A DNA stretch of 63,677 bases, filler included, from Candidatus Woesearchaeota archaeon (GTDB taxonomy: Archaea; Nanobdellota; Nanobdellia; SCGC-AAA011-G17; CAYFGV01): assembly GCA_964342845.1 (NCBI GenBank). It is 4 parts of 4 records of this genome, joined end to end, with 100 filler letters (N's around TTAATTAATTAA, not from the genome) between each part and the next. Parts side by side here need not be neighbours in the genome. Positions count along the whole stretch, not along the records: positions 17,507 to 34,584 come from CAYFGV010000013.1; positions 34,685 to 49,907 come from CAYFGV010000014.1; positions 50,008 to 63,677 come from CAYFGV010000016.1; 1 more part is not named here. The stretch is one strand, 5' to 3'. Position numbers and translations under genes: made by a program. Positions 21,273 to 58,662 of this stretch are shown here, piece after piece; positions within the stretch are counted from its first letter, which is position 1; every line of letters starts with the position of its first letter. The notes under the pieces are model-generated. The model was not told the DNA's origin, ran no database searches, and was given only the letters and a program-made list of their open reading frames with translations.

Positions 21273-21327
21273 TTTATAAACCTTATGTGCGTGTTGAAAT
21301 CCTTGCAATGCTAGAAAGTTTTTAGCA
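21273..21327 (-). repeat. Repeat A copy 1 (55-bp promoter-containing element)
   Basis: TGCTAAAAACTTTCTAGCATTGCAAGGATTTCAACACGCACATAAGGTTTATAAA; 50/55 identical to copy 2 by manual alignment. Confidence 0.92.
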
Positions 21328-21519
21328 GAAGAAGTAGCTAATTTTATAAAATAATTTCCTGCCCACCATTAAGAGATTAATAATAAATTTTTAAAAAAGA
21401 AAACAAAAAGAAGAATTAACTAAAAACAAAGTCTAAAACAAATCCCTAAATTTTCTTTAAAACAGCAATATTCATAAAGAAGTCGAAAAATTTATTTAGA
21501 AACTGTTCTCTTTAATCTC

Positions 21520-22266
21520 CTATAATTTATCCTCCAAAGATTTTCTATATTTTCTTACCCTCGATTTAATAGCAATCGGAGTTCTTTTTGAATATCCCAA
21601 ACCAACAAGTCCTTGAACAATCTTTCTTAGATCTGGTCTACCATCTTTATCTTGACAATCTGCTTGTTGTAATAAATTATAAGCGTCTATAGTTTCTTTT
21701 TCTGTCCACAAAGAACAACCTCTAGCAAGAGCCCCTTTTTCGGCATTAGCCCTGGTTTCTTCTGGCGATAGCCCATGTATCCCTAATTTTTCCTCATATA
21801 TTTTTCGTCCGGCTTTTTGACTTACTTTCTTTCTTTTTTCCTTAGCCATATTCCTAAGCCCTTTTTCTCCCCAATAAGAAATCTTTCCTGCTCTTTGGCT
21901 GTCTTTCCGAACTTGATCAGGAGTTCGTGAAAATACTCCCTTTTTATCTTCACATAACCTTTTACTACTTTCTCTATTGTGTTCTTTTGCTAAAGTTCTT
22001 CTTTCGTCTTCTTCAATTAAGCCCATATATGCTCTAACTTTGAGACCTCCTTGGTGTCCAGAAATTGCCCTCTGTATTCCACTCCAAGCAACACTATAGT
22101 TAACTTGGTATTCTAATTCAACCCTTAGAAAGTTCCCAATTTGAGCTATAGAATTTCCTTGCCGATATAGTTCCGCGATTTCAGGATGATCTTTTTGCAG
22201 AGTTCTACCTAATTGAATCGCATTTTTCATAGCTACAAGCTGTTCATCTGTAGGTCCACTTTTCAT
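21520..22266 (-). CDS. Basic putative DNA-binding protein with ~25-aa repeats and a Myb/SANT-like C-terminus
   Basis: Repeated KG..../SQ+AG+ units; WTEKE...RKIVQGL...KRTPIAIKSR. Confidence 0.55.
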   Translation of the reverse strand: MKSGPTDEQLVAMKNAIQLGRTLQKDHPEIAELYRQGNSIAQIGNFLRVELEYQVNYSVAWSGIQRAISGHQGGLKVRAYMGLIEEDERRTLAKEHNRESSKRLCEDKKGVFSRTPDQVRKDSQRAGKISYWGEKGLRNMAKEKRKKVSQKAGRKIYEEKLGIHGLSPEETRANAEKGALARGCSLWTEKETIDAYNLLQQADCQDKDGRPDLRKIVQGLVGLGYSKRTPIAIKSRVRKYRKSLEDKL

Positions 22267-22511
22267 AAAAAAAAGTAAATTTTTGTATACTTAAGGCTTT
22301 CTGTTTGTTGCTACTATTAAATATATACTATATCCAACAAGCAAAAATTCTTTTTAGAAAAAAGAAATAAAAAAGCGAGCTTTTCTCTCTTGTTTATTGA
22401 TCATTGGAAGAAACCATCCCCAAAAATAAAAATTAAAATTCACAAGGAAGCTTTCAGTTTCAGTTTATGGCTCACTAAGGTTCGAGCAAACAAAACAGAT
22501 TATGTGAAATA

Positions 22512-22781
22512 TTATTCAATAACCACCTTTAATCTTTTCAAAATTTGTTTTACTTCTTCTACTTTCATATGAAGAATTTTTGACTCTTTTCTGCCTTCAA
22601 TCTCATCCATAACTCCTAATTCATCAATTAGATCTTTGATTTCTCCATCTAATTTTTGATAGGTTCCAAACTCTTCGTTTAGGAATTTACTACATATTTC
22701 AGCTATTTCTTCTCTAATCTTTTCACAATCTTTACATGTTAATTGTTCTAATTTCTTAATCAATCTACTTATCGATTTCAT
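22512..22781 (-). CDS. Hypothetical protein
   Basis: 89-aa ORF with upstream CGACGGCTTTATTAA promoter-like element. Confidence 0.6.
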   Translation of the reverse strand: MKSISRLIKKLEQLTCKDCEKIREEIAEICSKFLNEEFGTYQKLDGEIKDLIDELGVMDEIEGRKESKILHMKVEEVKQILKRLKVVIE

Positions 22782-22894
22782 CGTATAATTTAATTTGTTA
22801 TTTTAATAAAGCCGTCGATTTACACGTAATTTTGTTTTATGTTTCCTAAATAACACGAGGGTCAAGGATTGTGAAGCAACCGGAAAAGTCAGAG

Positions 22895-23161
22895 TCAATT
22901 CTGATCTATTGGTCGATAAGATCTAACATGTTTTAAGTAGTAACCATCTGGGCAATCATCATCTGCAGCAAACAATTTACCTCTTTCTTCTCTAACTGCA
23001 TCCGAACAATAGAGGTTTATCTCATCACGACCTACAACATAATCTAGACTTAAATTACCATTAGCATGGCCGATTTCTGCCCTTTCCACTACAGGAGTAC
23101 CTTCCCACTTATATACAACAGTTTCTTCATCTAATGTTGGCAAATAGTCTGGAATTACCAT
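22895..23161 (-). CDS. Hypothetical protein flanked by a 13-bp inverted repeat
   Basis: 88-aa ORF with TATATAAA upstream. Confidence 0.6.
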   Translation of the reverse strand: MVIPDYLPTLDEETVVYKWEGTPVVERAEIGHANGNLSLDYVVGRDEINLYCSDAVREERGKLFAADDDCPDGYYLKHVRSYRPIDQN

Positions 23162-23265
23162 AAAAAGAGGAATATGATAAGATTTATATATGTTGTGAAT
23201 TGACTCTGATTGAAACTAACCCATACATATGCAAAAATTCAATCCCTAACTAGATTTTTTTACAA

Positions 23266-23634
23266 TCACTCCAAAACAAAAACTTCACTCCCTTTCCTCA
23301 ACTTAAAAGCTTCAACCCAACTCTTCCTACCTTTTTTCTTAACAGCAACCTTATGCTCAGGACTAACAATTAACTCTTTACCAGATTCAGTAACAACTTT
23401 AACCAAATAAGGTTTATCAGATTCATATTTATTCACAGACAAAACACCAGAATCAATAACCTTCCCTTTTTCTTCACCTAAAACATCTAATTCACCTTCA
23501 CTCAAATAACTAGCCAAATAACCATCTTTCTTAATCAAATCCAATTTATGTTTCCTCAAAAACTTGTTCACTTCTAATGAAATCTTAGATTTCTTACCAT
23601 TTTTCTTCAAAATAACATTCCCACTAGAAAATGA
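23266..23634 (-). mobile_element. Split intein N-fragment (IntN, 122 aa)
   Basis: Begins SFSSGNVILKK after DPLQ; block B LIVSPEHKV; ends LRKGSEVFVLE*. Confidence 0.88.
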
Positions 23635-24243
23635 TTGTAACGGGTCATGAAGCACATCCCCAAGCAAAGCCCCAGCATGAGCTCCAGTACCATCAAAAAA
23701 AGGAGCTGTCTTCTTCTCAAAATTATCTATTAAAATTTTAGGAACAGGATCCTTTTCACTCATCCTAGCCTTCTTACCTAAGTTTAAAAATAAAACCAAA
23801 CAAACAACAAACATCATGCTACCTATCAAAGAAGCTGCAGCCATAATATCTCCATAATTAGACCTAATCCACCAAGGAGAAATAACTGCCAAAATCAACA
23901 AAATAAACAAAAAAACATTCTGAAATTTCAAAGAACTTTTCTCTTGTATTTTAGCCTTTTCAACTAATTCCTTGCCCTTGCCATATGAAAAAGATTTTAT
24001 AAGTGGCAAATTATCATCACTAAAATTATGAAAACTAACAACATCCAATAATTTCTCTTTAGGTAATAAAGAGGATAATGCTTGACCTATTAAACTTTTT
24101 CCAGTACCAGGCTGACCAATTAATAATAGATTTCTTCTCTGCTTAGCAACCTTTTTAACAATATTTACAGCTTGTTCTTGTCCAATTACAGTATCAATAA
24201 GTTCCTTTGGAACCTCAACATCCTTTGTAGTTTTAAAAGCCAT
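23266..24243 (-). CDS. lonB: LonB protease N-terminal half ending in split-intein N-fragment
   Basis: VIGQEQA, Walker A GQPGTGKS, two TM helices, GALLGDVLHDPLQ, then intein sequence. Confidence 0.93.
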   Translation of the reverse strand: MAFKTTKDVEVPKELIDTVIGQEQAVNIVKKVAKQRRNLLLIGQPGTGKSLIGQALSSLLPKEKLLDVVSFHNFSDDNLPLIKSFSYGKGKELVEKAKIQEKSSLKFQNVFLFILLILAVISPWWIRSNYGDIMAAASLIGSMMFVVCLVLFLNLGKKARMSEKDPVPKILIDNFEKKTAPFFDGTGAHAGALLGDVLHDPLQSFSSGNVILKKNGKKSKISLEVNKFLRKHKLDLIKKDGYLASYLSEGELDVLGEEKGKVIDSGVLSVNKYESDKPYLVKVVTESGKELIVSPEHKVAVKKKGRKSWVEAFKLRKGSEVFVLE

Positions 24244-24266
24244 ATTTAAAAAATAAATATATTTAT

Positions 24267-24527
24267 TTAAATTATATCTTCCTCAGAAACAACTATAAAA
24301 TCCCCAACAGCAACCACAGCACCATAAGGTATCATAAAATCTCCTTCCTTCTTCTCTAAATCAAGACCATGAATAAAAGCAGTAGGATTTCTTAATATTA
24401 GTTCTATTAATTCCCCTGTTCGTGTTTCAAAAGAAAGATTACCTATTTCTCCTAACTTCTTTCCTGTTTTAGTAACAACAGTTTTCCCCATCAATTGTTT
24501 AGCAAATTTCTTTTCTTCTCCAGCCAT
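24267..24527 (-). CDS. PRC-barrel protein (CdpB-like)
   Basis: LMGKTVVTKTGKKLGEI...IPYGAVVAVGDFIVV. Confidence 0.85.
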   Translation of the reverse strand: MAGEEKKFAKQLMGKTVVTKTGKKLGEIGNLSFETRTGELIELILRNPTAFIHGLDLEKKEGDFMIPYGAVVAVGDFIVVSEEDII

Positions 24528-24555
24528 GATTAAACACCTTGTTAAATGATAATAT

Positions 24556-25179
24556 TCACTTATTTATATATCTTTCTAACGGGTTTAACAATCCAAAAGC
24601 TCTAACTATCTTCAAAGACAATGGTTCTTTATAAATAATAAGTCTATCAAACCTATACAAATCAACCAATTCTTTAAAAAATAACCCATTATCTAATCCA
24701 GACTGATCTACACTCGCTAAAAATAAATCTGTCTGAGAAACATTCTCTAAACTTTCATTCCCTTTTAATACATTTAAAACTTCTCCTTTGTCTAAATTAT
24801 AATTTTCAATACTAACCTCATCAGCAACAAAATCATCTACAAAATCAACTTCAATCAAAAGTAAGAGATCAGAATATCCTTTTAAAACATCATAATCAAA
24901 ACTTTCCTCTGTTTGCAACTCTTCATAACTTTTCTCTCCAGAAAAATCTACATTATAACCAAACTGAATTTCATCACTACTATAAAAAATAAGATTAACA
25001 TCCCCATCCTCAAAAATAGATTTAATCTCTTGATAATCCTGATAAACAATATATCCAAAAACTCCGAAAATAAGAATAAAAAACAACATAAAAACTAGAA
25101 CAACTTTAAATATCTTTTTTACAATAAAAACTGCTAAAAACACAGCAAAGAAAAACAGTAGTATAGTTATTAATTCCAT
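24556..25179 (-). CDS. Membrane-anchored hypothetical protein
   Basis: Two N-terminal TM segments followed by an acidic domain. Confidence 0.7.
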   Translation of the reverse strand: MELITILLFFFAVFLAVFIVKKIFKVVLVFMLFFILIFGVFGYIVYQDYQEIKSIFEDGDVNLIFYSSDEIQFGYNVDFSGEKSYEELQTEESFDYDVLKGYSDLLLLIEVDFVDDFVADEVSIENYNLDKGEVLNVLKGNESLENVSQTDLFLASVDQSGLDNGLFFKELVDLYRFDRLIIYKEPLSLKIVRAFGLLNPLERYINK

Positions 25180-25220
25180 AAACTTAAACTATATCTAACT
25201 ACTTAATAAACATTTTGCAA

Positions 25221-25573
25221 CCCCCACCCACCTATTTTTCCTATGGAATCTAATATAATAAAAAAAAGTTCGTTTGGAGTACTAGGAACCTCCTTTCCTA
25301 AGAAATCCTTAATTAATATATTATATAAAATAAAAATAAAAAAGTAAGAAATAAAAAATCCTTTAAATTCAATAAATACAAACCTCAAAACCTAAGAATT
25401 AATTAATAATAATAAAAGCATTATTATATTATTATATTTAAGTTTTTCTATATTATATTATATATTTACAAAACACTCATTAACTCCACATGAAATCAAG
25501 GTGTTACCTTATAATCAAAACACAAAAAACACCCAACTTTTAATAAAAAATAATCTCCACACGAAATCATGGT
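25221..25573. other. Putative replication origin (ORB-like boxes around an AT-rich unwinding element) upstream of cdc6
   Basis: Plus-strand boxes CTCCACATGAAATCAAGG (25484) and CTCCACACGAAATCATGG (25555); minus-strand boxes TTCCATAGGAAAAATAGGTGGGTGGGG (25221-25248) and CTCCAAACGAAC (25268-25279); AT-rich 25310-25470. Confidence 0.72.
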
Positions 25574-25635
25574 CTCAGAGAGATATAATCAAATATCTAA
25601 ATGTTTAAATATCTTATAACTAAGTTAAAAACACT

Positions 25636-27942
25636 ATGCCTCCGAAAACAAATCTAAATCAATTTTTTAAAAATTATCTAGAGAAAACTCCTTTGTTCAA
25701 AGATAAAAAAGTATTGCAATCTTCATATACTCCAGAAACAATACCTCACAGAGACGAACAAATAGATCAAGTAGCAGCAATGTTAGCCCCTTCACTAAGA
25801 CTAGAAAAACCATCTAATTTATTTTGTTATGGAAAAACTGGCTGTATCTCAGGAGAAAGTTTAATTTACACAGATAAAGGTAATGTAAAAATAAAAAACA
25901 TAGATACAAATTCTAAAGTATTGAGTTTTAATACTAAAACAAAAGAGTATGAATGGTCTTCTTTTATTTTCCTTAGGTTCGAAAATAAAGATAAACTATT
26001 AAAAATCACTTTAGATAATGGTCATGAACTTATTGTAACTAAAGACCATCCTTTATTAAAAGACGACATGGAATGGAAAAAAGCAGACGAATTAAATATA
26101 AATGACGAATTGGTTGTAGCTTACAATTTACCAAACCCAAACTTAAAAGAAATCCCCTTATCCTTGGCTAGGTTATCTGCTTTTGTTATTGCAGATGGTT
26201 CATTAAATAGAAGAAAAAGAAGAACAAAAGATAGCAAAGGATATTGGTATAATTCAGACAGGCAAAGATTTAGATATTTTAGTGACGATCAAGAACTTTT
26301 AAATTTAGTACAAACAGATATTTCACAATTGTTCAAGAACTACACACCTTCAATAGTTATCGACAAAGGTAAATGTCCATATGTTCAAGTTATTTCGCAG
26401 GAAGTTTGTCAAACATTAAATCAAATAGGAATTCCCTTTGGGAAAAAAAGTGATATTGTAGAAATTCCACAAATTATCTTAGAATCTTCTTCTATTATCC
26501 AAAGAGAATTTTTAAAAGCACTATTTACAGCTGATGGAACTGTAAGCCAACAAACTTTCCAAATAGAATATTATTCCAACTCAAAAAAATTATTACAGCA
26601 AACTTCTTATCTTTTACACCAAGAAGGAATAGCTTGTAAAATAAGAAATAAATCTGCTAAATGTAACGGAAAATTATTCAACTCATTTAGACTTTACATA
26701 AATGGAGAACAAAATTTAACTAGGTTTTACCATAAAATTGGATTCCACAGCACCATAAAACACCAAAGAATGAAGAATCTTTTCAAAAGATACAAAGTAC
26801 ACAAACCAAATCCAAAATACCATAACAACCATATAACTTACAAAATAAAAAACATACAAGAAACTTACGAAGATAAAGTTTACGACTTAACTGTTCCAAA
26901 AAATCATAATTTCATAGCCAATGGAATAATTTCACACAACACAGGCAAAACCCTTTCAATTAAACATGTAACAAACCAAATATTAGAAGTAGCAAAAGAA
27001 CAAAATATATCTGTAGAATGTTTTTATTTAAATTGTAAATTAAAAAGAGTAGCAGACACAGAATATAGATTAATAGCTCAATTAGCAAGGGCTTTCGGAG
27101 AAGAAGTCCCTGCAACAGGATTGCCAACAGACGAAGTATACAAACTTTTCTTAGAAAAAATAGATCAAGAAAAGAAATTAATAATATTAATCTTAGATGA
27201 AATAGACCAATTAGTTAAAAAAGCAGGCGACGAAATACTTTATAATTTAACCAGAATAAATTCAGAATTAAAAAATGTAGAGTTATCAATCATAGGAATA
27301 TCAAACGATCTCCTCTTCACAGACCATATTGACCCAAGAGTAAAATCATCTTTATCAGAAGAAGAATTAGTTTTTCCACCATACAATGCAATACAGATTC
27401 AAGATATTTTAAGGGAAAGAGCAAAAAAAGCATTTGCAGATGAAGTTATAGAAGATGGAGTCATAGAAAAATGTGCAGCTTATGCAGCTAGAGAACATGG
27501 AGACGCAAGAAGAGCTTTAGAACTTTTAAGAGTTGCAGGAGAATTAGCAGAAAGATCAGACAAAACAAAAATATCAATAGAACATATAGATCATGCAGAA
27601 GAAAAAATTGAAAGAGACAGAATAAATGATATAATAGCCACGCAACCAAAACAAGCACAACTAACTCTATTAGCTTTATTTCGTTTAGCACAAAAAGACG
27701 AAAAGTTTTATACTGGTGATATTTTCAAGGTTTACAAAGAATACTGTAGTAAAATAGGTTTAAAACCATTAACTCAAAGAAGAATTTCAGATATTCTCTC
27801 AGAACTAGACTTATTAGGTATTATAACATCAACAGTGATAAGTAAAGGAAGATACGGAAGAACAAGAGAAATTGTTTTAGCAATACCGGATGCAACATTA
27901 CCTAAACTGACAACAATTTTAAAACAAGCTCTTGACCTATGA
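25636..27942 (+). CDS. cdc6: Orc1/Cdc6 initiator containing an intein
   Basis: IPHRDEQI, YGKTG|TGKT, LDEID, HGDARRAL, winged-helix SKGRYGRT. Confidence 0.95.
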   Translation: MPPKTNLNQFFKNYLEKTPLFKDKKVLQSSYTPETIPHRDEQIDQVAAMLAPSLRLEKPSNLFCYGKTGCISGESLIYTDKGNVKIKNIDTNSKVLSFNTKTKEYEWSSFIFLRFENKDKLLKITLDNGHELIVTKDHPLLKDDMEWKKADELNINDELVVAYNLPNPNLKEIPLSLARLSAFVIADGSLNRRKRRTKDSKGYWYNSDRQRFRYFSDDQELLNLVQTDISQLFKNYTPSIVIDKGKCPYVQVISQEVCQTLNQIGIPFGKKSDIVEIPQIILESSSIIQREFLKALFTADGTVSQQTFQIEYYSNSKKLLQQTSYLLHQEGIACKIRNKSAKCNGKLFNSFRLYINGEQNLTRFYHKIGFHSTIKHQRMKNLFKRYKVHKPNPKYHNNHITYKIKNIQETYEDKVYDLTVPKNHNFIANGIISHNTGKTLSIKHVTNQILEVAKEQNISVECFYLNCKLKRVADTEYRLIAQLARAFGEEVPATGLPTDEVYKLFLEKIDQEKKLIILILDEIDQLVKKAGDEILYNLTRINSELKNVELSIIGISNDLLFTDHIDPRVKSSLSEEELVFPPYNAIQIQDILRERAKKAFADEVIEDGVIEKCAAYAAREHGDARRALELLRVAGELAERSDKTKISIEHIDHAEEKIERDRINDIIATQPKQAQLTLLALFRLAQKDEKFYTGDIFKVYKEYCSKIGLKPLTQRRISDILSELDLLGIITSTVISKGRYGRTREIVLAIPDATLPKLTTILKQALDL
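25843..26940 (+). mobile_element. Intein (366 aa) with LAGLIDADG in the Cdc6 Walker A motif
   Basis: CISGES start; VTKDHP; FVIADG and ALFTADG; VYDLTV...IISHN|T. Confidence 0.95.
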
Positions 27943-34519: not shown

Positions 34520-34522
34520 AAA

Positions 34523-36482: not shown

Positions 36483-36537
36483 TGCTAAAAACTTTCTAGC
36501 ATTGCAAGGATTTCTACACGCGCGTAACGTATATAAA
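36483..36537 (+). repeat. Repeat A copy 2
   Basis: TGCTAAAAACTTTCTAGCATTGCAAGGATTTCTACACGCGCGTAACGTATATAAA, 23 nt before ATG 36561. Confidence 0.92.
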
Positions 36538-36560: not shown

Positions 36561-37844
36561 ATGATACATTTTTGGGAACTACCAAACCAAAATAGAGTTA
36601 TTTTGGATGAAATCTTCAAGAAAGAACTTATGTCTAAATTCATGAATAAAGTAAAAACTTTAAACGATGCAGTCAAAGTTTTGGGTTTTTCTAAAAATAC
36701 ATTTAAGAGAGTCATCAATATAAGTAGGCGTAAAATTAGCATTGAGTTTTTGGTAAAATTAATCAGATATCTAAATAATAAAAATTTCACTCTAGGAAAA
36801 GCAGAAAAGAAAATCCTTTGGATTGGACATAAAAACAGCAAGGGAATCATTAATCCAAAACTACCTTTTAATTTTAATTCTAAACAATCTGTAAGGACAC
36901 TAGCAGCAATTTTCAATGAAGGTTGGATAAGCGGCGGAATGTATTATTCAAATAGTGAAAAACCACTAAGAGATTCAGTCAAAAAATCTACCCTAGAAGC
37001 TTTCGGAGGCAATCAAGAAACAATTAAAGAGTATCTAAAAGAAAATGATAAAGTTTTAGCTTTTCCCTCTATCTTTAGGGATTTATTCTTAACTTATGTA
37101 AATTTTAAAGGCTCAAAAGTTACAAATGACCCCAAAATACCTAATGAAATTTTATCTAACAAAGAGCTTATGTGTGCTTGGCTTGAACAAACAATAGCCG
37201 ATGAAGGATCTGTAATTTTTAATCCACAGAAACCTAAACCAGAGAAGTATAAGAAATTAATTAGCTGGAAAAGATCTATGGATGTAACAAATTATAAACC
37301 GCTACAAAATATAAAAAAGAATACACCTTTCAAGAAATTACCTTTCAACGTTCAAACTGAATTAATTCGAAGAATGAATAATATAATGAAGTTCGAAACA
37401 GAAATTCTGAAAAGGTTAGATATAAATTTTAGACATTATTGTGGTAACGTATATTTAACAAAGGATAAAATTAGAATAAGAAAAGTCATCCATATAACCA
37501 AAAGAAAAAATCTTCTAAAATTAAGAAAAATAATAACAATTCCCCATCCAGAAAAAGAATTAAAGTTTAAAGAAATGTTCAATGATTATAAAAGATATAA
37601 AGAGCCATTAAAAGTAAAAAATTCTATCATAGAATTAGGGATAAAGAAAAAACATTTTACTTCTATCGATTTAAAACATAAGATGAAATATCAAAATCTA
37701 AGCAATTCTTTTAAGTGGCTTAAAATATTTGAAAAAGAAGGATTAATTAAAAAGATAAAAGAGTCTTCTTATGGAAATGGATATTATAGGGAACCTGCAA
37801 GGTACATTCTTAATCAAACGTCCAAAGCAGTTCCAGAAACATAA
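36561..37844 (+). CDS. Free-standing LAGLIDADG-like protein with N- and C-terminal HTH-like regions
   Basis: LAAIFNEG and WLEQTIADEGSV; PKIPNEI linker; no Hint motifs. Confidence 0.75.
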   Translation: MIHFWELPNQNRVILDEIFKKELMSKFMNKVKTLNDAVKVLGFSKNTFKRVINISRRKISIEFLVKLIRYLNNKNFTLGKAEKKILWIGHKNSKGIINPKLPFNFNSKQSVRTLAAIFNEGWISGGMYYSNSEKPLRDSVKKSTLEAFGGNQETIKEYLKENDKVLAFPSIFRDLFLTYVNFKGSKVTNDPKIPNEILSNKELMCAWLEQTIADEGSVIFNPQKPKPEKYKKLISWKRSMDVTNYKPLQNIKKNTPFKKLPFNVQTELIRRMNNIMKFETEILKRLDINFRHYCGNVYLTKDKIRIRKVIHITKRKNLLKLRKIITIPHPEKELKFKEMFNDYKRYKEPLKVKNSIIELGIKKKHFTSIDLKHKMKYQNLSNSFKWLKIFEKEGLIKKIKESSYGNGYYREPARYILNQTSKAVPET

Positions 37845-49850: not shown

Positions 49851-49907
49851 TTTAATTACCTCCAATATTATTATCTTTCATTTTTTTGATAACTTCCTGA
49901 GCCTTCT

Positions 49908-50007: not shown

Positions 50008-50580
50008 ATTGGTATGGTTCCTGTTGGAAAAGTTGAAACAGGAGTTATGAAGGTTGGTGACAAAGTAATAATTGTACCAGGAAGAGAAGGAACAGGTGTT
50101 ACTGGGGAAGTAAAGAGTATAGAGATGCATCATGAACAAATTCAGGAAGCTATTCCTGGAGATAACATTGGATTCAGTGTTAGAGGTGTTGGTAAAAAAG
50201 ACATAGCTAGAGGAGATGTTTTAGGACATACTGATAACCCTCCGACTATTGTTTCAGAATTTACTGCACAGATTGTTGTGTTGAATCACCCTAGTGTTAT
50301 AACTGTTGGTTATACGCCTGTGTTCCATATACACACTTCACAGGTTGCATGTAGATTTGGAGAACTAGTTAAGAAAGTTAATCCAGCTACTGGTGAAACT
50401 TTACAAGAAAAACCTGATTTGCTAAAGAATGGTGAAGCAGGAATTGTTAAGTTGATACCTACAAAACCACTGGTTATTGAAAAACAATCTGAGATTCCAC
50501 ATATGTCTAGATTTGCTATCAGAGATGCAGGTCAAACTGTTGCAGCTGGTATGTGTACAGACTTTGTTAAGAAATCTTAA
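50008..50580 (+). CDS. tuf: Elongation factor 1-alpha, C-terminal fragment
   Basis: [36 protein letters not shown]. Confidence 0.95.
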
Positions 50581-50674
50581 TTTCTTTTTTTCTTTTTTAT
50601 ATATTTTAAAACCATAAAGTTTATAAATAACTTAGATTATTAAATTATTAGTTTTCTAAAAAGGTTGAAACTAA

Positions 50675-51316
50675 ATGGAAGATATGACAAAACTTAAGAC
50701 AGGAACAACAACTATCGGTATTGTTTGTAAAGATGGTGTTGTGTTAGCAGCAGATAAAAGAGCTACTGCTGGGTATATGATTGCTAATAAGAAATTTCAG
50801 AAAATTCATAAAATTACTGACAAAATAGCTATTACTATGGCTGGTTTGGTTTCTGATGCTCAGTTAATAACTAAGTTGATACAAGCTGAGTTGAGATTAA
50901 AAAGAATCAGAACTGGAAAAGATGTTAAAGTTAAAGAAGCAGCTAGTTTGTTGTCTGGAATAGTTTATGCTAATATAAGGAAGATGAGTATGGTTCCTGG
51001 TATTGTTGGATTTTTAATGGGTGGTAAGGATGCTATTAATGGTTTTAGTTTATATGATTTAGGGATTGATGGTTCAATTAATAGAGTAGATGATTTTACT
51101 TCTACTGGTTCTGGTTCTGTTTTTGCTTATGGTGTTTTGGAAACATTATATGATAAAAACATGGATATTAAGAAAGGTGTTGATTTAGCTGTCAAGTCTG
51201 TTAATGCTGCTATGAAGAGAGATGCAGCTAGTGGTGAGGGTGTAGATGTTGTAGTTATAACAGAAAAAGGAGCTGAAAGGCTTCCTACAAGAAGATTAAT
51301 AAGTACTTTAGAATAA
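50675..51316 (+). CDS. psmB: Proteasome beta subunit
   Basis: Propeptide KTG|TTTIG, AADKRAT, TGSGS, RDAASG. Confidence 0.95.
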   Translation: MEDMTKLKTGTTTIGIVCKDGVVLAADKRATAGYMIANKKFQKIHKITDKIAITMAGLVSDAQLITKLIQAELRLKRIRTGKDVKVKEAASLLSGIVYANIRKMSMVPGIVGFLMGGKDAINGFSLYDLGIDGSINRVDDFTSTGSGSVFAYGVLETLYDKNMDIKKGVDLAVKSVNAAMKRDAASGEGVDVVVITEKGAERLPTRRLISTLE

Positions 51317-51336
51317 AAAACTTTTTTTGAGATAAA

Positions 51337-53235
51337 ATGATTAAAATTCTGGAACAAATTAAAGAAATGTTGCCAGCAAATGCTAATGTTAGCACAACTG
51401 GCTTTGAAGGCGCTAATATAGTGATTTACACTAAAAGTAGAGACTTCTTTCTTAATCATAATACTATTATTAGAGAGATAGTTAATACTATAAAGAAAAG
51501 AGTTGAGGTGAGACCAGATCCTTCTATGACATCAGACCTGGAAAAAGCTGAAGATGAAATTAGCAAATTGATACCTGATGAAGCAGGAAATATAAATATT
51601 ATTTTTGATCCTCAAAGAAGTGTTGTGACTATTGAAGTTGAAAAACCTGGTTTAGCTATTGGTAAACAAGGTGAATTGTTAAAATTAATTAGAGAAAAAA
51701 CATTGTGGGTGCCTTTGGTTAAAAGAATTCCAGCTATTAGGAGTAAAATTATTGAAAGCATTAGGCATGTTTTGTATGAAAATAATGATTATAGAAAGAA
51801 ATTTTTGAATACAGTTGGGGAAAGAATATATGGTGAGAGAAGAAGTGCAAAACCAACATGGATAAGAATCACTTGTTTAGGGGCTGCGAGGCAAGTAGGT
51901 AGAAGTTGTTTTTTGTTGCAAACTCCTGAGAGTAAAATTTTATTAGATTGTGGGATGGATGTTGCTGCTTCTGAAGATAATGCTTATCCTTTTTTTGATA
52001 CACCAGAATTTAGAATTGAAAGTTTAGATGCTGTTATTATCAGTCATGCACATATTGACCATTCTGGGTTGGTGCCTTTGTTATTTAAATATGGATATAA
52101 AGGTCCTATTTATTGCACTTTTCCTACAAGAGATGTTATGGCTTTGTTGGCTTTGGACATGATTGGTATTGCTCATAAAGAGGCTAAAAAGAGTTTGTAT
52201 ACTAGTGCTGAAATTAAAGAGATGGTTAAGCACACTATATGTATTGGTTATGAAGAAGTTACTGATATTACTCCAGATGTTAGATTGACTTTTTACGATG
52301 CTGGACATATTTTGGGGAGTGCTATTGCTCACTTACATATTGGAGATGGAATGCATAATTTTGTTTATACTGGTGATATGAATTATGAATTGAGTAATTT
52401 ACTTGGACCTGCTGTGACAAAATTTCCTAGAGTTGAAACTTTGATGACAGAGGCTACTTATGGTACTAAAGATGAAACTTCTGCTACAAGACAAGAATCT
52501 GAAGATTTTTTGATTGATATTATTAAGAGAACCTTAGACAAAAGTGGTAAGGTTTTAATGCCTGTGTTAGGGGTTGGAAGGTCACAAGAGATAATGATTA
52601 TTTTAGAGAGGTTGATTAGAGAAGGTAAGCTGAAAGATGTTCCTGTATATATTCAAGGAATGGTTTGGGATGTTACTGCTATACATACTGCTCATCCTGA
52701 TTATTTTAATAATAAAATTAGAAAGTTGATTTTTCATAAAGATACTAATCCTTTTTTATCTAAAGTTTTTAAGCATATAGCTGGTCAAAAAGAAATGAGG
52801 CAAGTTATTGAACAAGGAGGACCTTGTGTTATTGTAGCTACTTCTGGAATGCTTACAGGTGGAGCTTCTTTAGAATATTTTAAGAATTTATCTGATGATC
52901 CTAAAAATTCTATTGTGTTGACTAGTTATCAAGGAGAAGGTTCTATTGGAAGAAGATTAGAGAATGGTGAGAGAGATTTTGCTTTTAGTTCTGGTGGAAA
53001 TAAACAAGAAATTCTTAAAGTTAAGGCAGAGTTTCATTCTTTGCATGGGCTTACAGGGCATTCAACATATAAGCAATTAATGAATTATTTGAATCACGTT
53101 AATCCTAAACCTAGGAAGGTTATTTTTATCCATGGTGAGAGTTCTAGATGTTTAGAAATGGCTTCAACTATTCATAGACAGTTGAGAATAGAAACAGCTG
53201 CACCTAAAAATTTAGAGACTATAAGGTTGAGGTAA
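51337..53235 (+). CDS. fttA: KH-domain beta-CASP ribonuclease aCPSF1 (FttA)
   Basis: N-terminal KH domains, SHAHIDH, AGHILG, LTGHS, HGE; follows psmB. Confidence 0.93.
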   Translation: MIKILEQIKEMLPANANVSTTGFEGANIVIYTKSRDFFLNHNTIIREIVNTIKKRVEVRPDPSMTSDLEKAEDEISKLIPDEAGNINIIFDPQRSVVTIEVEKPGLAIGKQGELLKLIREKTLWVPLVKRIPAIRSKIIESIRHVLYENNDYRKKFLNTVGERIYGERRSAKPTWIRITCLGAARQVGRSCFLLQTPESKILLDCGMDVAASEDNAYPFFDTPEFRIESLDAVIISHAHIDHSGLVPLLFKYGYKGPIYCTFPTRDVMALLALDMIGIAHKEAKKSLYTSAEIKEMVKHTICIGYEEVTDITPDVRLTFYDAGHILGSAIAHLHIGDGMHNFVYTGDMNYELSNLLGPAVTKFPRVETLMTEATYGTKDETSATRQESEDFLIDIIKRTLDKSGKVLMPVLGVGRSQEIMIILERLIREGKLKDVPVYIQGMVWDVTAIHTAHPDYFNNKIRKLIFHKDTNPFLSKVFKHIAGQKEMRQVIEQGGPCVIVATSGMLTGGASLEYFKNLSDDPKNSIVLTSYQGEGSIGRRLENGERDFAFSSGGNKQEILKVKAEFHSLHGLTGHSTYKQLMNYLNHVNPKPRKVIFIHGESSRCLEMASTIHRQLRIETAAPKNLETIRLR

Positions 53236-53271
53236 GGAAAAGTATTTAAACAAGTTAATTGAAGTTATTGT

Positions 53272-54063
53272 ATGAAACACGGTTTATATGTAACTTTATG
53301 GTTGGTGATGTTTTTTGTAATTGCACAATTAGTTGGTGTTTTAGTTGTTAGTAAGTATCTTGCTGTTGAAGAATTGCCTTATGGAATTGAAAGGCCTGAA
53401 ATTGAAGAAGAAACTTCTTATATTCCTATTGCTATTGCAATTATTATTGCTACTGGTTTGGCTTTGTTGATTATGAAACTTGGTGTTTTAAAACTTTGGA
53501 AGGCTTGGTTTTTTTTGGGTGCTGTGATTACTATGTTAATAGCTTTTGGGGCTTTTGTTAGTCAAAGTATTGCTCTTGTTTTAGCTGCAGTGTTAGCTGT
53601 TTTTAAAGTGTTTAAACCAAATGTTTATGTTCATAATTTTACAGAGTTATTTATTTATTCTGGGATTGCTGGTTTGTTTGTTCCTTTAATGGGTTTGTTA
53701 GCTATTTTTATCTTATTAATCTTGATTAGTATTTATGATATGGTTGCAGTTTGGAAGACTAAACATATGATTTCTTTGGCTAAATTTCAGAGTAAAGCTA
53801 AAGTATTTGCTGGATTAATGATTCCTTATGACAAAGGAAAGAAAACTGCTATTTTAGGTGGAGGAGATATTGGTTTTCCTATGTTGTTTGTTGGAGTTGT
53901 TTTAAAAAGTACAGGTGTTTTAGATGCTTTTTTAGTTATTTTATTTGCTGCTATTGCTTTGCTTTTGTTGTTTTTTTATAGTAAGAAGAATAAGTTTTAT
54001 CCTGCAATGCCTTATTTAACTGTTGGGTGTTTTGCTGGATATTTGGTTGGGTTATTGATTTAA
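53272..54063 (+). CDS. Presenilin/SPP-family intramembrane aspartyl protease
   Basis: YD, LGGGD and PAMP motifs. Confidence 0.9.
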   Translation: MKHGLYVTLWLVMFFVIAQLVGVLVVSKYLAVEELPYGIERPEIEEETSYIPIAIAIIIATGLALLIMKLGVLKLWKAWFFLGAVITMLIAFGAFVSQSIALVLAAVLAVFKVFKPNVYVHNFTELFIYSGIAGLFVPLMGLLAIFILLILISIYDMVAVWKTKHMISLAKFQSKAKVFAGLMIPYDKGKKTAILGGGDIGFPMLFVGVVLKSTGVLDAFLVILFAAIALLLLFFYSKKNKFYPAMPYLTVGCFAGYLVGLLI

Positions 54064-54071
54064 GATATTTT

Positions 54072-54608
54072 TTATATTAAACTTAAAGCTATTAAAGCAA
54101 CTGCTGTGAATCTTATTATTCTTGGGATTATTCCTATTAATACAAAGTATCTTATTTTTAATTTGAAGATTCCTGAGAACCAACAAAAAGGTACATAAGG
54201 TATTGGTGATACTGCAGAAATAAATAAACCATAGTAACCATATTTATTAAATAAATCATGATATTTTTGATATCTTTTTCTTACTATTTTTTTAAATCCG
54301 GGTAAACCATATTTTTTACCTATAAAATAAGAGATGAAACTTGCTGTTATGCTTCCTAGTGATGCTGATAATAAAACTAAAGTAGGATTTAGTTTTACAA
54401 TTATACCTGCAATGATTGGAATATCTGGGCCTATTGGTTGGAATAACATATCTGCCATAAAAGAGATTATGGATATAGCTGGATAACTGTAAGTAATAAT
54501 AAATATACTTATATTTTCTTTTAGATTTGAAAGTTCTAGAAATCCTAGAATGAATATTAGTAAAATTATTACTAAGGCAATTAGAAATATTTTTTTTGCT
54601 TTTTTCAT
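54072..54608 (-). CDS. DedA/VTT-family membrane protein
   Basis: QPIGPD, SYFIGK, SPIPY...SG, IPRIIRF. Confidence 0.85.
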   Translation of the reverse strand: MKKAKKIFLIALVIILLIFILGFLELSNLKENISIFIITYSYPAISIISFMADMLFQPIGPDIPIIAGIIVKLNPTLVLLSASLGSITASFISYFIGKKYGLPGFKKIVRKRYQKYHDLFNKYGYYGLFISAVSPIPYVPFCWFSGIFKLKIRYFVLIGIIPRIIRFTAVALIALSLI

Positions 54609-54671
54609 TGTGTTTTATTAATTTAGATAGTAATATTTATAAACTATTGGATTTATCTTTTTTGGAAGGAA

Positions 54672-54971
54672 ATGGTAAGAGAAATTCGTATTTGTGTTGG
54701 TATTGTACCTTATGATGGTCAAATTAGTTTAAAAAATAGTAATCGTGTAGCTAAGATTAATGAAGTAGAGTATATGGTCTCTACAGGAGAAATAGTTTCT
54801 GAGAGTGGTATGTATAAGCATCTGATTTCTAATCGTCTTAAATGTTTAAAAGGTATTAAAAGAGGAAGTAGTTTGAGTGATATTGTTGACGGCGTTATAG
54901 ATTCTGATGATTTTTATGTAGAAAAAAATGAGAAGAAGATAGTGATAGGTTTTAATGAACCTAGTTTATAA
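54672..54971 (+). CDS. Hypothetical protein
   Basis: 99-aa ORF with TATA box upstream. Confidence 0.6.
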   Translation: MVREIRICVGIVPYDGQISLKNSNRVAKINEVEYMVSTGEIVSESGMYKHLISNRLKCLKGIKRGSSLSDIVDGVIDSDDFYVEKNEKKIVIGFNEPSL

Positions 54972-55083
54972 TAAACTATTATAGTATAATCGACTATGAA
55001 ATTTGGTATGTTTTTATTACCCTCTAATGACTAAAAACGAAAGCTTTATAAATAACATAATTGTTCTATTTTAGTGATAAAAT

Positions 55084-55866
55084 ATGATAATGAAAGAAGA
55101 TTTTGTTAAGAAAATAAGAGGCTCATTTAATTTAAATGAGTATGAAGCAAAGATTTGGATATCTTTATTAAGTAAAGGACAAGCTACAGCTGGAGAATTA
55201 GCTGAAATAAGTAATGTACCAAGATCAAGATGTTATGATGTTTTAGAGTCTTTAGAGAAAAGAGGCTTTATTGTTATGAAATTAGGTAAACCTATAAAAT
55301 ATTTAGCTGTTGAGCCTAAAGAAGTTATAGAAAGAGTTAAAAAAAATATTAATACAGATGCTAAGAGTAAAATAGAGATGGTTGGCAATGTTAGTAAAGC
55401 TCCTATTTTTAATGAGTTGAATTTGCTATTTAATGATGGAGTTACACATATTGACTCATCTGCTATATCTGGAGCTATTAAAGGCAGAGGAAATTTGCTT
55501 AATCATGCTGAAAGTATGATTAGAAAAGCTAAGAATTCTGTTGTTATTGTTACAACTGAAAAAGGTTTAGATAGAAAAATTGAAAATTTAGGATATACTT
55601 TGAAAAAGTTAAGTGATAAAGGTGTTAAAATTAGAGTGGCTGCTCCTTGTGGAGATAAAGAATTGGTTAAGGGTTTAGGAAAGTATGCTGACTTTAAAGA
55701 AATTAAAGATTTAGATTCAAGATTTGTAGTAGTAGATTCTAAAGAGATATTATTTATGCTTAATGGCGAAGAAGTTCATGATTCTTATGATATAGGTGTT
55801 TGGTCAAATACAACTTTATTTGCTAAAGCAGTGAATGATTTGTTTGAGTTTAAGTGGAATAGTTAG
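55084..55866 (+). CDS. TrmB-family transcription regulator / chromatin protein
   Basis: LNEYEAKIW...VPRSRCYDVLESLEKRG HTH; C-terminal RFVVVDSKE. Confidence 0.9.
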   Translation: MIMKEDFVKKIRGSFNLNEYEAKIWISLLSKGQATAGELAEISNVPRSRCYDVLESLEKRGFIVMKLGKPIKYLAVEPKEVIERVKKNINTDAKSKIEMVGNVSKAPIFNELNLLFNDGVTHIDSSAISGAIKGRGNLLNHAESMIRKAKNSVVIVTTEKGLDRKIENLGYTLKKLSDKGVKIRVAAPCGDKELVKGLGKYADFKEIKDLDSRFVVVDSKEILFMLNGEEVHDSYDIGVWSNTTLFAKAVNDLFEFKWNS

Positions 55867-55920
55867 GCGTGTTTTTTAAATTAGAGAAAGTTATATAAAT
55901 AACTTTATTCTATTAGATTT

Positions 55921-56154
55921 ATGATTAAAAGACCCTCAAATATATATCTGATGGTACTATTGGTGTCAATACTTTTGTTGTTTGCTAGTTTGTATTTTAT
56001 TAGTTTAAGTAATTATTTGAATATTTTGGATTATTCTCCAGTAAATATGGGTTTTATGGGTCTTTATTATGCTTTATTTTATTTATCTGTAGTTTTTGGA
56101 GTTTTGTCAGGAGTTCTATTGGTTAAAGGAAAGTATTTTAAAGGAAAAAAGTAA
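55921..56154 (+). CDS. Small 2-TM membrane protein
   Basis: Two hydrophobic helices; TATA box upstream. Confidence 0.6.
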   Translation: MIKRPSNIYLMVLLVSILLLFASLYFISLSNYLNILDYSPVNMGFMGLYYALFYLSVVFGVLSGVLLVKGKYFKGKK

Positions 56155-56164
56155 GCATTTTGGC

Positions 56165-56491
56165 ATGGTTTTTTTGGGGAATGGTAGGAATCATAAGAAT
56201 GGAACAAGGCTTGTTGTGAGTGGTGTAGGTCAGAATTCTAAAGGGTTAAGGAAGATACGCAGAGGGGATGCAGCAGGTGCTGCAGCTGATTTGAAAGATA
56301 AATTAAAAGAAATGGCTGACAAGCATTCTAACATGACTGTTGGTGATTTTTTAGATTACTATATTTTGAACTGTGCTTCTAATGTAGCAGCTATAGAGGA
56401 TTTGGGCTTGGATGAACTGCGTGAAAAGTCTATTGGATATCCTTTTTCTTTTTCATATTATGTTGAGAGAGCTGTTAAGAAATATTTTTAA
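56165..56491 (+). CDS. Hypothetical protein (start probably ATG 56165)
   Basis: Host-like codons; this start avoids overlap with the previous gene. Confidence 0.55.
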   Translation: MVFLGNGRNHKNGTRLVVSGVGQNSKGLRKIRRGDAAGAAADLKDKLKEMADKHSNMTVGDFLDYYILNCASNVAAIEDLGLDELREKSIGYPFSFSYYVERAVKKYF

Positions 56492-56535
56492 AGTAATCAC
56501 AAGTTTTAAATATTCTTTAGTTTTAAAGTTAAATT

Positions 56536-58005
56536 ATGAAAGATTTGATTGATAAGTTACATCCTTTGGAGAGGAGTTTAATTAGTTTTTTGAAAAATGG
56601 TAAGAGCGTTAAAGAATTAAGTTCTGAAAGTGGTTTAAAAGAGATTGAAGTTACAAGAGCTATTCAGTGGTTAGAAAATAAGAATGTTTTAAAGATTAAG
56701 AGTTCTGTTAAAGAGGTTATTTCTTTGGATAAGAATGGGGAAAAATATTTGAAAGAAGGTTTGCCTGAGAGGAAGTTTTTAGAGAGTTTGAAAGGAGAGA
56801 TGGGTTTAGATAAATTACAGCAAGTTAGTGGTTTAGATAAAAATGAAGTGAATATTTCTTTGGGTTTATTAAAGAAGAAAGGATGTATTGGTTTTGATAA
56901 TGGTTTGATTTCTATAACAGAAACTGGTAAAGGTTTTTTAAGTAAGACTTCTTTAGAAGAAAAGTTTTTTTCTGTGTTGCCTTTAGAGATTAAAGAGTTA
57001 AGTGATGAAGAGAAGTATGCTTTTAATGAGTTGAAGAAGAGGAAGCAAATTGTTAAGGTTGATATGGTTAAGGAGAAGGTGATTACTTTGACTAAGAGAG
57101 GTAAGGAGTTGAGTAAGTTGAAATTGAAAGGAAAGTATATTGAGAGTTTAACTCCTGCTATGCTTAAGAGTGGATATTGGAAAGGGAAGAAGTTTAGAAA
57201 GTATGATGTTTCTGTTAATGTTCCTAAGGTTTATGCTGGAAAAAGACATTTTGTTAAAGAAGCAAATAATCTTATGAAAAAAATTTGGGTTGAGATGGGA
57301 TTTAAAGAGATGACTGGTGATATTGTTAATTCTGGTTTTTGGAATTTTGATGCTTTATTTACTGCACAGGATCATCCTGTTAGAGAAATGCATGATACTT
57401 TTTTTGTTAAATCTAAAAGTAAGTTGCCTAAGTTGTCTTCTAATGTTAAAAAAATGCATGAAGATGTTTGGGGATATAAATGGGATGCTAAAGAAGCTGA
57501 GAAAACTGTTTTACGTACTCATACTACTGTGTTAAGTGCTAAGACTTTGGCTGAGTTAAAGGAATTTCCTGCTAAGTTTTTTGCTTTGGGAAGAAATTAT
57601 AGAAATGAAGCTTTGGATTGGTGTCATTTGTTTGAGTTAAATCAGACTGAAGGTATAGTTGTAGATGAAGGAGCTAATTTTAGACATTTACTTGGTTATT
57701 TGAAGCAGTTTTTTAGTAAGATGGGTTATGAAAAGGTTAGATTTAGACCTGCTTATTTTCCATATACAGAGCCTTCTGTTGAAATAGATGTTTATGTTCC
57801 AGAGAAGGGTACTTGGATGGAGCTTGGTGGTGCTGGTATTTTTAGACCTGAAGTTGTGATTCCTTTGTTAGGCAAATGGGTTCCTGTTTTGGCTTGGGGG
57901 CCTGGTTCAGATAGAATTTTAATGGGTTATTATGGTTTGAAAGATATTAGAGATTTATTTAAGAATGATTTGAAACAGCTAAAAGAGATGAAGTGTTGGG
58001 TATAA
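56536..58005 (+). CDS. pheS: Phenylalanine--tRNA ligase alpha subunit
   Basis: WNFDALF..QDHP, LRTHTT, YFPYTEPS, ELGGAG. Confidence 0.96.
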   Translation: MKDLIDKLHPLERSLISFLKNGKSVKELSSESGLKEIEVTRAIQWLENKNVLKIKSSVKEVISLDKNGEKYLKEGLPERKFLESLKGEMGLDKLQQVSGLDKNEVNISLGLLKKKGCIGFDNGLISITETGKGFLSKTSLEEKFFSVLPLEIKELSDEEKYAFNELKKRKQIVKVDMVKEKVITLTKRGKELSKLKLKGKYIESLTPAMLKSGYWKGKKFRKYDVSVNVPKVYAGKRHFVKEANNLMKKIWVEMGFKEMTGDIVNSGFWNFDALFTAQDHPVREMHDTFFVKSKSKLPKLSSNVKKMHEDVWGYKWDAKEAEKTVLRTHTTVLSAKTLAELKEFPAKFFALGRNYRNEALDWCHLFELNQTEGIVVDEGANFRHLLGYLKQFFSKMGYEKVRFRPAYFPYTEPSVEIDVYVPEKGTWMELGGAGIFRPEVVIPLLGKWVPVLAWGPGSDRILMGYYGLKDIRDLFKNDLKQLKEMKCWV

Positions 58006-58044
58006 AGATTTTAAAGGAATAATAAAAAAGAAGTTAATTTTCTT

Positions 58045-58431
58045 CTATTCTTCATCAACTAACTTGTTTTTTTCTATCCAGCTAGAGAATTCGTATTCAT
58101 CAAATAATTCGTCTTTTTTCTCATTACAGAATTTCTCCAAATTGAAATCAAAATCCTCCATATAGAATTCTACTCCAATTCTTTTAAGCAAAGATTCATC
58201 AGTTACTTCCTCTACTGTCGCAATCTTTGTATTCGGATTATATTCTACCATCCTGTATGCTTTATCAGGTGCCATTATTCTTTCTCCTATATGTTTAGGA
58301 TTTTCAAACTCTTCTTTCATGACTATATAATGATTTCCTTTTACATTAATCCCGAGAACATCAAGAGATCCTACTGTTTCAGTTATTCCTCTTTTAGGAT
58401 TATAATCTTCTATTTCCATTCTTTTTAACAT
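58045..58431 (-). CDS. Hypothetical protein inserted after pheS
   Basis: GGAGG RBS before ATG 58431; preceded by repeat B. Confidence 0.65.
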   Translation of the reverse strand: MLKRMEIEDYNPKRGITETVGSLDVLGINVKGNHYIVMKEEFENPKHIGERIMAPDKAYRMVEYNPNTKIATVEEVTDESLLKRIGVEFYMEDFDFNLEKFCNEKKDELFDEYEFSSWIEKNKLVDEE

Positions 58432-58468
58432 ATTATTTCCCTCCAAATTTAATTAAAATTAAGAGGTC

Positions 58469-58505
58469 TTTTCTCTTTATAAATCTTTCGTTTTTGTTAC
58501 TACTT
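58469..58505 (-). repeat. Repeat B copy 1 (37-bp promoter element)
   Basis: AAGTAGTAACAAAAACGAAAGATTTATAAAGAGAAAA; 35/37 identical to 63288-63324. Confidence 0.85.
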
Positions 58506-58607
58506 TTAAAAAATAAATAAGTTTCTAAGAAAATGTTTTTTAAAATAAAATACTAGAATTTTGGAATATTGTAAGTATAAGCTCCGATGGCTTTATTTAC
58601 AGAAAAA

Positions 58608-58662
58608 AGCTAGTAACTTCTTAGCATTGCAAGGATTTTTACACGTGCGTGAGGTTTATAAA
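58608..58662 (+). repeat. Repeat A copy 3
   Basis: AGCTAGTAACTTCTTAGCATTGCAAGGATTTTTACACGTGCGTGAGGTTTATAAA; 44-45/55 identical to copies 1 and 2, ungapped. Confidence 0.9.

Follow-up and report, generated by a model that had tools for sequence, protein, structure and literature searches.

The 63,677-nt stretch of DNA analysed here (the window) consists of four contigs, joined by N linkers, from assembly GCA_964342845.1 of a Candidatus Woesearchaeota archaeon, whose genome (labelled G000) amounts to 573 kb at 85% completeness. Its subject is a 55-bp element that ends in a TATA box shortly before a start codon and that is present once on each of three separate contigs (C13, C14 and C16 for copies 1, 2 and 3). 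All three copies reported in the initial annotation are real: they align without gaps (50/55, 44/55 and 45/55), they have in common a 17-nt core, the arrangement GCTA-N9-TAGC and an ACACG motif, and their TATA boxes lie 21, 23 and 21 nt, respectively, before the ATG.

21273..21327, minus strand: element copy 1, comprising operator, GC-rich region of the transcription factor B recognition element (BRE) and TATA box; promoter of the endonuclease-lonC unit (sequence alignment).
36483..36537, plus strand: element copy 2 (sequence alignment).
36483..36501, plus strand: imperfect palindrome (19 bp) opening copy 2, read from the sequence; an RNA hairpin here lacks covariation support.
36497..36520, plus strand: operator core of copy 2, the 17-nt core plus the proximal TTTCTACAC word, where most relatives have G[AC]CA repeats.
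36530..36537, plus strand: TATA box of copy 2, 23 nt before the ATG, a spacing that suggests a leaderless transcript.
58608..58662, plus strand: element copy 3 (alignment and an independent contig).

Read 5' to 3', the element begins with an imperfect palindrome (element positions 1-19, and therefore longer than originally described), continues with the invariant TAGCATTGCAA and the proximal TTTCTACAC word, has a stretch rich in CGCG where the BRE lies and ends in the TATA box. When the genome was scanned with a position weight matrix (PWM), six gap-free copies were recovered and nothing else exceeded 5 bits; with each copy left out in turn, the six scored 54-78 bits, whereas the highest score was 4.1 among non-sites and 7.3 across five shuffled genomes. 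A seventh copy, on contig C27, came from a looser motif scan, requires a one-base gap and scores -3 in the ungapped leave-one-out matrix, and we count it because its core is intact and its position after the gene cdc6b is conserved. The genome therefore contains seven copies rather than the three first listed, and two of the four additional ones head host operons. Copy 3 is not an assembly artefact, because a contig from another study's sequencing run matches positions 58333-58875 with zero differences. In five copies the first ATG falls 17-23 nt past the TATA box, and the copies on C10 and C27 have longer leaders with a ribosome site of the GGAGG/GAGGTG type. Since a TATA-like word lies upstream of about 176 of the 553 open reading frames (ORFs), the element is rare among promoters, and its location upstream of the inferred transcription start points to a DNA site. 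The G000 copies contain the sequence ACTTTC.

The genes that follow the three window copies, together with both halves of a divided lon gene, are as follows.

18829..20187, minus strand: lonC, a C-terminal intein piece followed by the AAA/protease half of Lon; probably co-transcribed from copy 1.
20178..21251, minus strand: LAGLIDADG-like gene (357 amino acids, counted from the ATG that follows the TATA box by 21 nt) between the Lon halves, its stop overlapping the lonC start; no Pfam match.
23266..24243, minus strand: lonN, the N-terminal half of Lon, ending in an N-terminal intein piece (weak Intein_splicing match at 254-320).
36561..37844, plus strand: LAGLIDADG-like gene (427 amino acids) behind copy 2, convergent on leuS.
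58684..59529, plus strand: Bro-N family gene (281 amino acids; Pfam) behind copy 3, between pheS and ppa/pheT.

The Bro-N assignment made at the outset is confirmed by Pfam; the two genes that had been called LAGLIDADG are without a Pfam match and are LAGLIDADG-like only by similarity, in that both have Atlas neighbours (scores 0.94) with LAGLIDADG_3 on 11-62% of members, and the gene at the Lon locus is also weakly similar to LAGLIDADG genes in BLAST. For the 427-residue protein, phmmer against PDB came back empty and a single-sequence fold had low confidence (predicted local distance difference test, pLDDT, 36); its orthologue in the relative G001 is 57% identical, and the promoter of that orthologue resembles, by eye, G001's own radA version. 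Elsewhere in G000, the copy on C5 leads a LAGLIDADG_3 gene, that on C4 a second Bro-N gene, and that on C10 heads the operon LAGLIDADG_2 – a 94-residue ORF (ORF94) – radA – LAGLIDADG; the copy on C27 overlaps the stop of a 348-residue Cdc6/Orc1 paralogue, here called Cdc6b, and leads ORFs of 43 and 36 amino acids. Every stand-alone LAGLIDADG-type gene found in G000 lies behind the element, one of them by its operon position after radA, and the remaining LAGLIDADG matches are within inteins. As read from its sequence and placement, the element serves the radA operon and six further units of G000 as their promoter. The view of it as a promoter whose conservation extends past the BRE and TATA box, and which is enriched before selfish genes, is upheld.

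The broader distribution of the element was followed in candidate radA-operon promoters, which we extracted from 55 genomes and then from 23 more (78 in total), taking in each case the TATA box with the highest upstream GC content. Across the order, the ORF94-radA operon is preceded by an analogous but lineage-specific GC-rich element before the TATA box, and because the operator is lineage-specific, exact-sequence searches in relatives are nearly empty: the 17-mer is present in one of 60 relatives, and a 20-mer from the radA promoter of G001 matches exactly only at itself. An endonuclease gene separates promoter and ORF94 in four of 55 genomes, and congeners from which it is absent (G033, compared with G005, and G020, compared with G043) retain the matching radA promoter. 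When the site adjacent to cdc6b was compared with radA promoters, restricted to sites in which 9 or more of 22 nt are G+C, the promoter of the same genome was the best match in 19 of 30 cases and among the top three in 27, a result equalled in none of 100,000 permutations. In 18 of the 20 genomes searched, lineage patterns recovered between 2 and 34 matches each (counting overlapping ones), as compared to 0-1 with reversed controls. The same motif, at a fixed spacing to the TATA box, thus precedes several unlinked and functionally related genes, as in an archaeal regulon, and it is kept at orthologous host genes (the radA operon and the ORFs adjacent to cdc6b) independently of mobile inserts. 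The element is, with little doubt, a host promoter of a radA regulon. The suggestion of an operator for a regulon of mobile genes had identified the right class of site, while assigning it to the mobile genes instead of to a host regulon centred on radA.

Several features of the radA operon were recorded alongside. ORF94 (L009:3613-3897), which we take to resemble a single-strand binder of the PC4 type, has no Pfam or PHROG match, lies directly before radA where checked, and was found in 36/39 and 26/30 genomes; its leader contains a conserved hairpin of the GCGAAAGC type. Endonucleases with an N-terminal W-x3-E-x3-L motif are located between the radA promoter and ORF94 in G000, G005, G029, G043 and G193 (L009:2863-3653), and their presence is patchy within genera. 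In 12 of 28 relatives, radA has an open frame of 700-1400 amino acids (L056-L067), consistent with inteins. A second ORF94 locus in G012 (L235, C120), whose promoter resembles that of G017, is possibly on a mis-binned contig.

Mobile genes, too, tend to carry the version of the operator that belongs to their host. When Bro-N promoters (30 loci, of which 7 were unscorable) were compared with the 78 radA promoters, that of their own host ranked first in 11 of 23 and among the top three in 16 of 23, and promoters of the Lon endonuclease ranked first in 6/7; both sets include G000. In the control, the promoter of the initiator cdc6, the host ranked first in one of 20 cases (median rank 35). Downstream genes in relatives were named for a fetched subset of matches, several of which had no Pfam match or no clear ORF. 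By Pfam they include XPD, Hef, Lhr, DprA, RNase_H_2, Cas4-like nucleases, an integrase and HNH genes, and further genes led by the element are exonucleases, KilA-N, RhuM, Bro-N, many LAGLIDADG genes and TnpB/Cas12f-like genes. At least four of the eight sites in G007 (97% complete) lead LAGLIDADG genes. In G093, about a dozen near-identical copies are situated inside the left end of a multi-copy TnpB element, where the promoter does travel passively, as cargo. This TnpB-only insertion sequence (L136, C142) is inserted after TTTATT-like words, and the host operator within it is internal rather than terminal.

A candidate for the protein that reads the operator is Cdc6b, which was found in 86 of the 91 genomes searched (30/31, 26/30 and 30/30). 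It is separate from the initiator Cdc6, whose gene precedes DP1/DP2 and has origin boxes upstream, and it retains its Walker A and B motifs. The structural model combines an AAA+ domain with a winged helix (pLDDT 92) and has a template-modelling (TM) score of 0.80 to DNA-bound Cdc6-1; by profile, Cdc6b scores better against Cdc6-1/Orc1 (E = 8e-52 and 4e-39) than against ORC2 of A. pernix (E = 3e-15), which we take to belong to the Orc1-2 clade. Covarying Cdc6b positions 311 and 315 both fall inside the third helix of the winged helix in the model (residues 310-322), which reads RTFxR in most genomes and TTLYR in G000. A rule by which a helix of the form [RK]xxxR accompanies a G[AC]CA operator holds in 51/51 cases in the set from which it was derived, two partial Cdc6b proteins having been excluded; for G012 we used the ORF94 copy that precedes radA, and the other copy, with GACA repeats like those of G017, contradicts the rule if it is native. 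The rule was then fixed and applied to 30 new genomes, where it agrees in 20 of 23 scorable cases, and in the pooled data it agrees in 73 of 76, with helix position 0 at the top of 391 columns. Among radA promoters, G[AC]CA is present in 43 of 47 genomes with an RxxxR helix, in 0/18 of those without arginine at position 0 and in 0/6 of those without arginine at position 4. Additional loci (67, minus 26 duplicates and one truncated, leaving 40, of which 15 had no scorable site) agree in 21/25. Across the same genomes, the initiator has the helix QRR in 25 of 26 full-length copies seen and the origin boxes are of the TCCA-N3-GAAA type throughout, distinct from the operator, such that initiator helix and boxes are near-constant. 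Judging from this covariation and from the model, Cdc6b is probably the reader of the element. In the window, three words of the TCCA-N3-GAAA type (25237-25566) lie upstream of an intein-bearing cdc6-DP1-DP2 operon, marking a likely replication origin, and the same boxes occur in most relatives examined.

A number of observations weigh against a Cdc6b-read, radA-centred regulon. Choosing promoters by upstream GC content can select the wrong one; the lineage pattern matched nothing in G132 and gave a single, control-level match in G120; among 23 Bro-N promoters, 7 differ from the host version; and in G000 itself XPD, Hef and the Cas4-like gene all lack the element, and hence the host part of the regulon is small there. 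With respect to the reader, the helix term at position +4 was added to the rule after exceptions had been seen, the rule misses G049, G045 and G186 among the new genomes and four of the additional loci (three of them with TTGTCA repeats), and the TGCAA word of G000 is typical of another helix class (1/18 versus 5/6). The reader alternatives compared comprised a linked winged-helix protein, sigma-70 and a paralogue of the general factor TFB. Furthermore, phylogeny-corrected pairs on well-supported branches number only four to five, none of them contrary (sign test, p = 0.125, not significant); in a subset of 31 genomes chosen for contrast, helix position 0 ranks third to fourth (p = 0.0034), behind columns outside the helix; and no operator was found within 700 nt upstream of cdc6b (0/72, with one partial motif, in G232).

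It is these last three points, the non-significant result after correction for phylogeny, the non-helix columns that score equally well and the lack of Cdc6b autoregulation, that speak for the same regulon having a different reader, such as a small regulator or the tiny ORFs adjacent to cdc6b, with Cdc6b covarying through ancestry or linkage. We consider this unlikely. Contrasts within families follow the helix, both in f27 (G190/G191 versus G047/G188 and G027/G189) and in f7 (G182 versus G007/G034/G053/G184/G185), and the element site adjoins cdc6b in many genomes. A conserved winged-helix protein of 150 amino acids near cdc6b is rejected as reader, its helix being near-invariant and its gene having no element (2/27 in the top three); an alternative TFB is rejected because G000 has a single TFB gene; and sigma-70 is rejected because Sigma70_r2 turned up in just 40 of the 78 genomes, with G096, G097, G099, G051 and G010 among those giving no match. 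A TTGACA does occur 17 nt before TATAAA in many sites of family f4, the spacing being 15-18 elsewhere. G000 contains an intact sigma-70-like gene (L148, C1) with an ordinary TATA promoter and no element; in the available portions of PMC8204110, sigma-70 genes of this archaeal group are presented without a function. Distinctly less probable is that Cdc6b reads the operator in response to a life-cycle signal (host attachment, replication onset or DNA exchange), or that it acts as a repressor. This would accommodate the element-led DprA gene of G097, the partial motifs before MCM (G234) and cdc6b (G232), and the control of DNA-exchange genes by Orc1-2 (as given in the available text of PMC6061795), and an operator that abuts the BRE could repress sterically. 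The other host members named by Pfam are, however, repair helicases and nucleases (Hef, XPD, Lhr, Cas4-like, RNase_H_2), and a site just upstream of the BRE is, as generally held, typical of archaeal activators.

Explanations that give the element itself another nature fare worse. The idea put forward in the initial annotation, that the element is a promoter that moves or a site at which gene cassettes recombine, could draw on copies that are 80-91% identical over 55 bp, on similarity between the paralogous Bro-N cassettes that continues upstream of the element (by eye), on the operator inside the left end of the TnpB insertion sequence of G093, and on the fact that mobile genes somehow acquire the host version. 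It is nevertheless very improbable, since the element stays at radA sites that are empty of the endonuclease, which also excludes an integron-like cassette site; it is single, at the 5' end and at a fixed TATA spacing, with no downstream partner site in the PWM scan; its 17-mer occurs in one of 60 relatives, whereas promoters of an analogous kind are common; the Lon endonuclease's closest homologues (66-69%) are without it; and no joint falls at the element among the run-contig joints listed (contigs only, at the Bro-N locus). Nor is it a promoter that moves by itself, as before mobile genes it mostly follows the host version. The end of an insertion sequence (IS) or of a miniature inverted-repeat transposable element (MITE) is rejected because the flanks of the G000 copies are unrelated and show no partner end, and because the operator of G093 is internal to the left end of the TnpB element. 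Scarcely credible, finally, is a structured RNA, a unit like the repeats of clustered regularly interspaced short palindromic repeat (CRISPR) arrays, or a second origin bound by Cdc6b, for which one could invoke the 19-bp palindrome, a reverse-strand GTT...GAAAG stretch like archaeal CRISPR repeats, and the frequent location of cdc6 paralogues beside their origin. The palindrome shows no covariation (423/500 shuffles were equally high) and the element has no Rfam match; it lies upstream of the TATA box and therefore outside the mRNA; the tandem-repeat listing contains no CRISPR-like array; the spacing to TATA and ATG is fixed at many unlinked genes; and the true origin has different boxes.

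Returning to the host regulon, the upstream part of the repeat is likely a Cdc6b site, as predicted from its sequence, for switching on recombination-repair genes. Given its position upstream of the BRE and TATA box, we infer an activator rather than a repressor: Cdc6b would bind the repeats just upstream of the BRE/TATA and raise transcription of radA, of a variable set of repair enzymes and of the tiny ORFs when recombination is needed; the inducing signal would be damaged DNA or some other state competent for recombination. For nucleases that rely on the repair of breaks to spread, expression at a time when RadA can serve in homing or repair would be an advantage, and their genes may come to carry the host version through long residence, gene conversion or selection after arrival. 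This entire scheme, a radA-centred regulon read by Cdc6b, activated in damage-like conditions and joined by selfish nucleases, is one that the sequence data lead us to favour with moderate confidence.

At the Lon locus, lonN and lonC are separated by three ORFs, the element and the endonuclease gene. The layout is that of a fractured gene, two ORFs with intein pieces and an endonuclease between them, and is known here from sequence. The arrival of the element had been put forward as an explanation for how lon was split while remaining expressed, which is not needed: in G005, G028 and G173, lonN ends 5-19 nt before the endonuclease gene, a gap with no room for the element, and Lon is split there all the same. 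All 29 loci of this endonuclease family adjoin a separate lon half, and an element-like promoter precedes the endonuclease in 15 of them, with none found in 10 and 4 unscorable. Where the element is present, lonC probably shares the endonuclease transcript and would be made from the promoter supplied, in the window, by copy 1. No transfer history is claimed, since few branches of the endonuclease tree are resolved (4 of 20 starred). Fractured genes, as described in the available portions of Dassa et al. 2009 (PMC2677866), combine a split intein with a free-standing homing endonuclease, and co-transcription from the endonuclease promoter has been proposed; the order lonN-intein / endonuclease / intein-lonC is alike, as is the overlap between the stop of the endonuclease gene and the start that follows. 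The present case differs in that the gene is a chromosomal archaeal lon, the enzyme is LAGLIDADG-like and the promoter, in the 15 of 29 loci, is that of a host regulon, not one borne by the endonuclease. Between lonN and the element (window 21520-23161) lie ORFs of 248, 89 and 88 amino acids without a convincing Pfam match, and the cargo between the Lon halves varies widely among relatives.

Other observations concern the surroundings of individual copies. The LAGLIDADG gene on C5 ends within the 3' end of an antisense tRNA-like sequence (L008:5867-5960; G000 C5 about 21850-21945), apparently an intron-bearing tRNA-Gly missed by ARAGORN and possibly the homing target of that gene. The ORFs of 43 and 36 amino acids after cdc6b (L270:889-1120; G000 C27, minus strand), the second of which ends in an EAGFMxGY-type motif, belong to a group of two to three tiny ORFs that recur in this position across the order, constitute a core member of the regulon and are possibly modulators of Cdc6b or RadA; convergent on them is a gene for a 103-residue Lys/Arg/Ala-rich repeat protein, histone H1-like (L270:552-863). 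A second repeat of 58 nt, in two copies that are 86% identical (window 58448-58505 and 63267-63324), contains a TATA-like word and precedes a leftward gene at each copy, and the run contigs have loose ends at 58472-58517.

The nearest known counterpart is Orc1-2 of the Sulfolobales, which, like Cdc6b, has AAA+ and winged-helix domains and is a paralogue of Orc1/Cdc6 other than the initiator. In Sulfolobus, according to the available portions of PMC6061795 and PMC9738581, the winged helix binds ANTTTC (the damage-responsive element DDRE, 5'-ANTTTC-3') in damage-induced promoters, with arginines of the winged helix contacting DNA, and we would attribute to Cdc6b a comparable reading of a repair-gene promoter motif. 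The two nonetheless differ: here the operator is a lineage-specific repeat whose words across the order are G[AC]CA, CTCA-type or TGCAA rather than ANTTTC, no operator was found at the promoter of cdc6b itself, G000 has one TFB and no TFB3, and in small genomes selfish nuclease genes form the majority of members. Because a comparison of profile and structure scores would place Cdc6b closer to initiator-type Cdc6-1/Orc1 than to ORC2, its role is likely convergent with that of Orc1-2. In the bacterial SOS regulon, a LexA box precedes recA, and mobile elements have come under its control. One operator before a recombinase and repair genes, boxes that are specific to clades and co-option by mobile genes are features of both systems, whereas here the promoter is of the archaeal TATA/BRE kind, the regulator proposed combines AAA+ and winged-helix domains, and the position of the site suggests activation in place of a self-cleaving repressor. 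Integron attC cassettes and IS or MITE ends share with the element a repeat beside unrelated accessory genes and an imperfect palindrome; unlike them, the element lies 5' of the gene, contains a TATA box, leads core genes and persists at empty sites.

A bolder interpretation, which we advance as tentative and open to considerable doubt, is that Woesearchaeota-type archaea independently made a duplicate of the initiator the master switch of an SOS-like radA regulon, with the operator changing from lineage to lineage together with two residues of the recognition helix. The operator current in the host would have been adopted again and again by Bro-N genes, TnpB elements and homing endonucleases, which would then cut DNA when RadA is induced; rapid operator turnover may be a form of host escape from them, and in some lineages the C-terminal half of Lon would depend on that switch as well.

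For this DPANN group, we found in the open-licence literature no description of a global regulon or its regulator, and a term search of the main text of a 2026 preprint on 208 complete Nanobdellota genomes (10.64898/2026.05.13.725050) returned none of 'radA', 'regulon' and 'promoter'. The available text of PMC6061795 raises the question of whether Orc1/Cdc6 paralogues outside the Sulfolobales control damage responses, and the findings on Cdc6b bear on such a role. The analysis yields a regulon with a named candidate for its regulator and, although the organisms are uncultured, a prediction from residue to base that lends itself to testing in vitro. It would also mean that selfish nucleases, including stand-alone TnpB/Cas12f-like genes, have been wired into the recombination control of their hosts.

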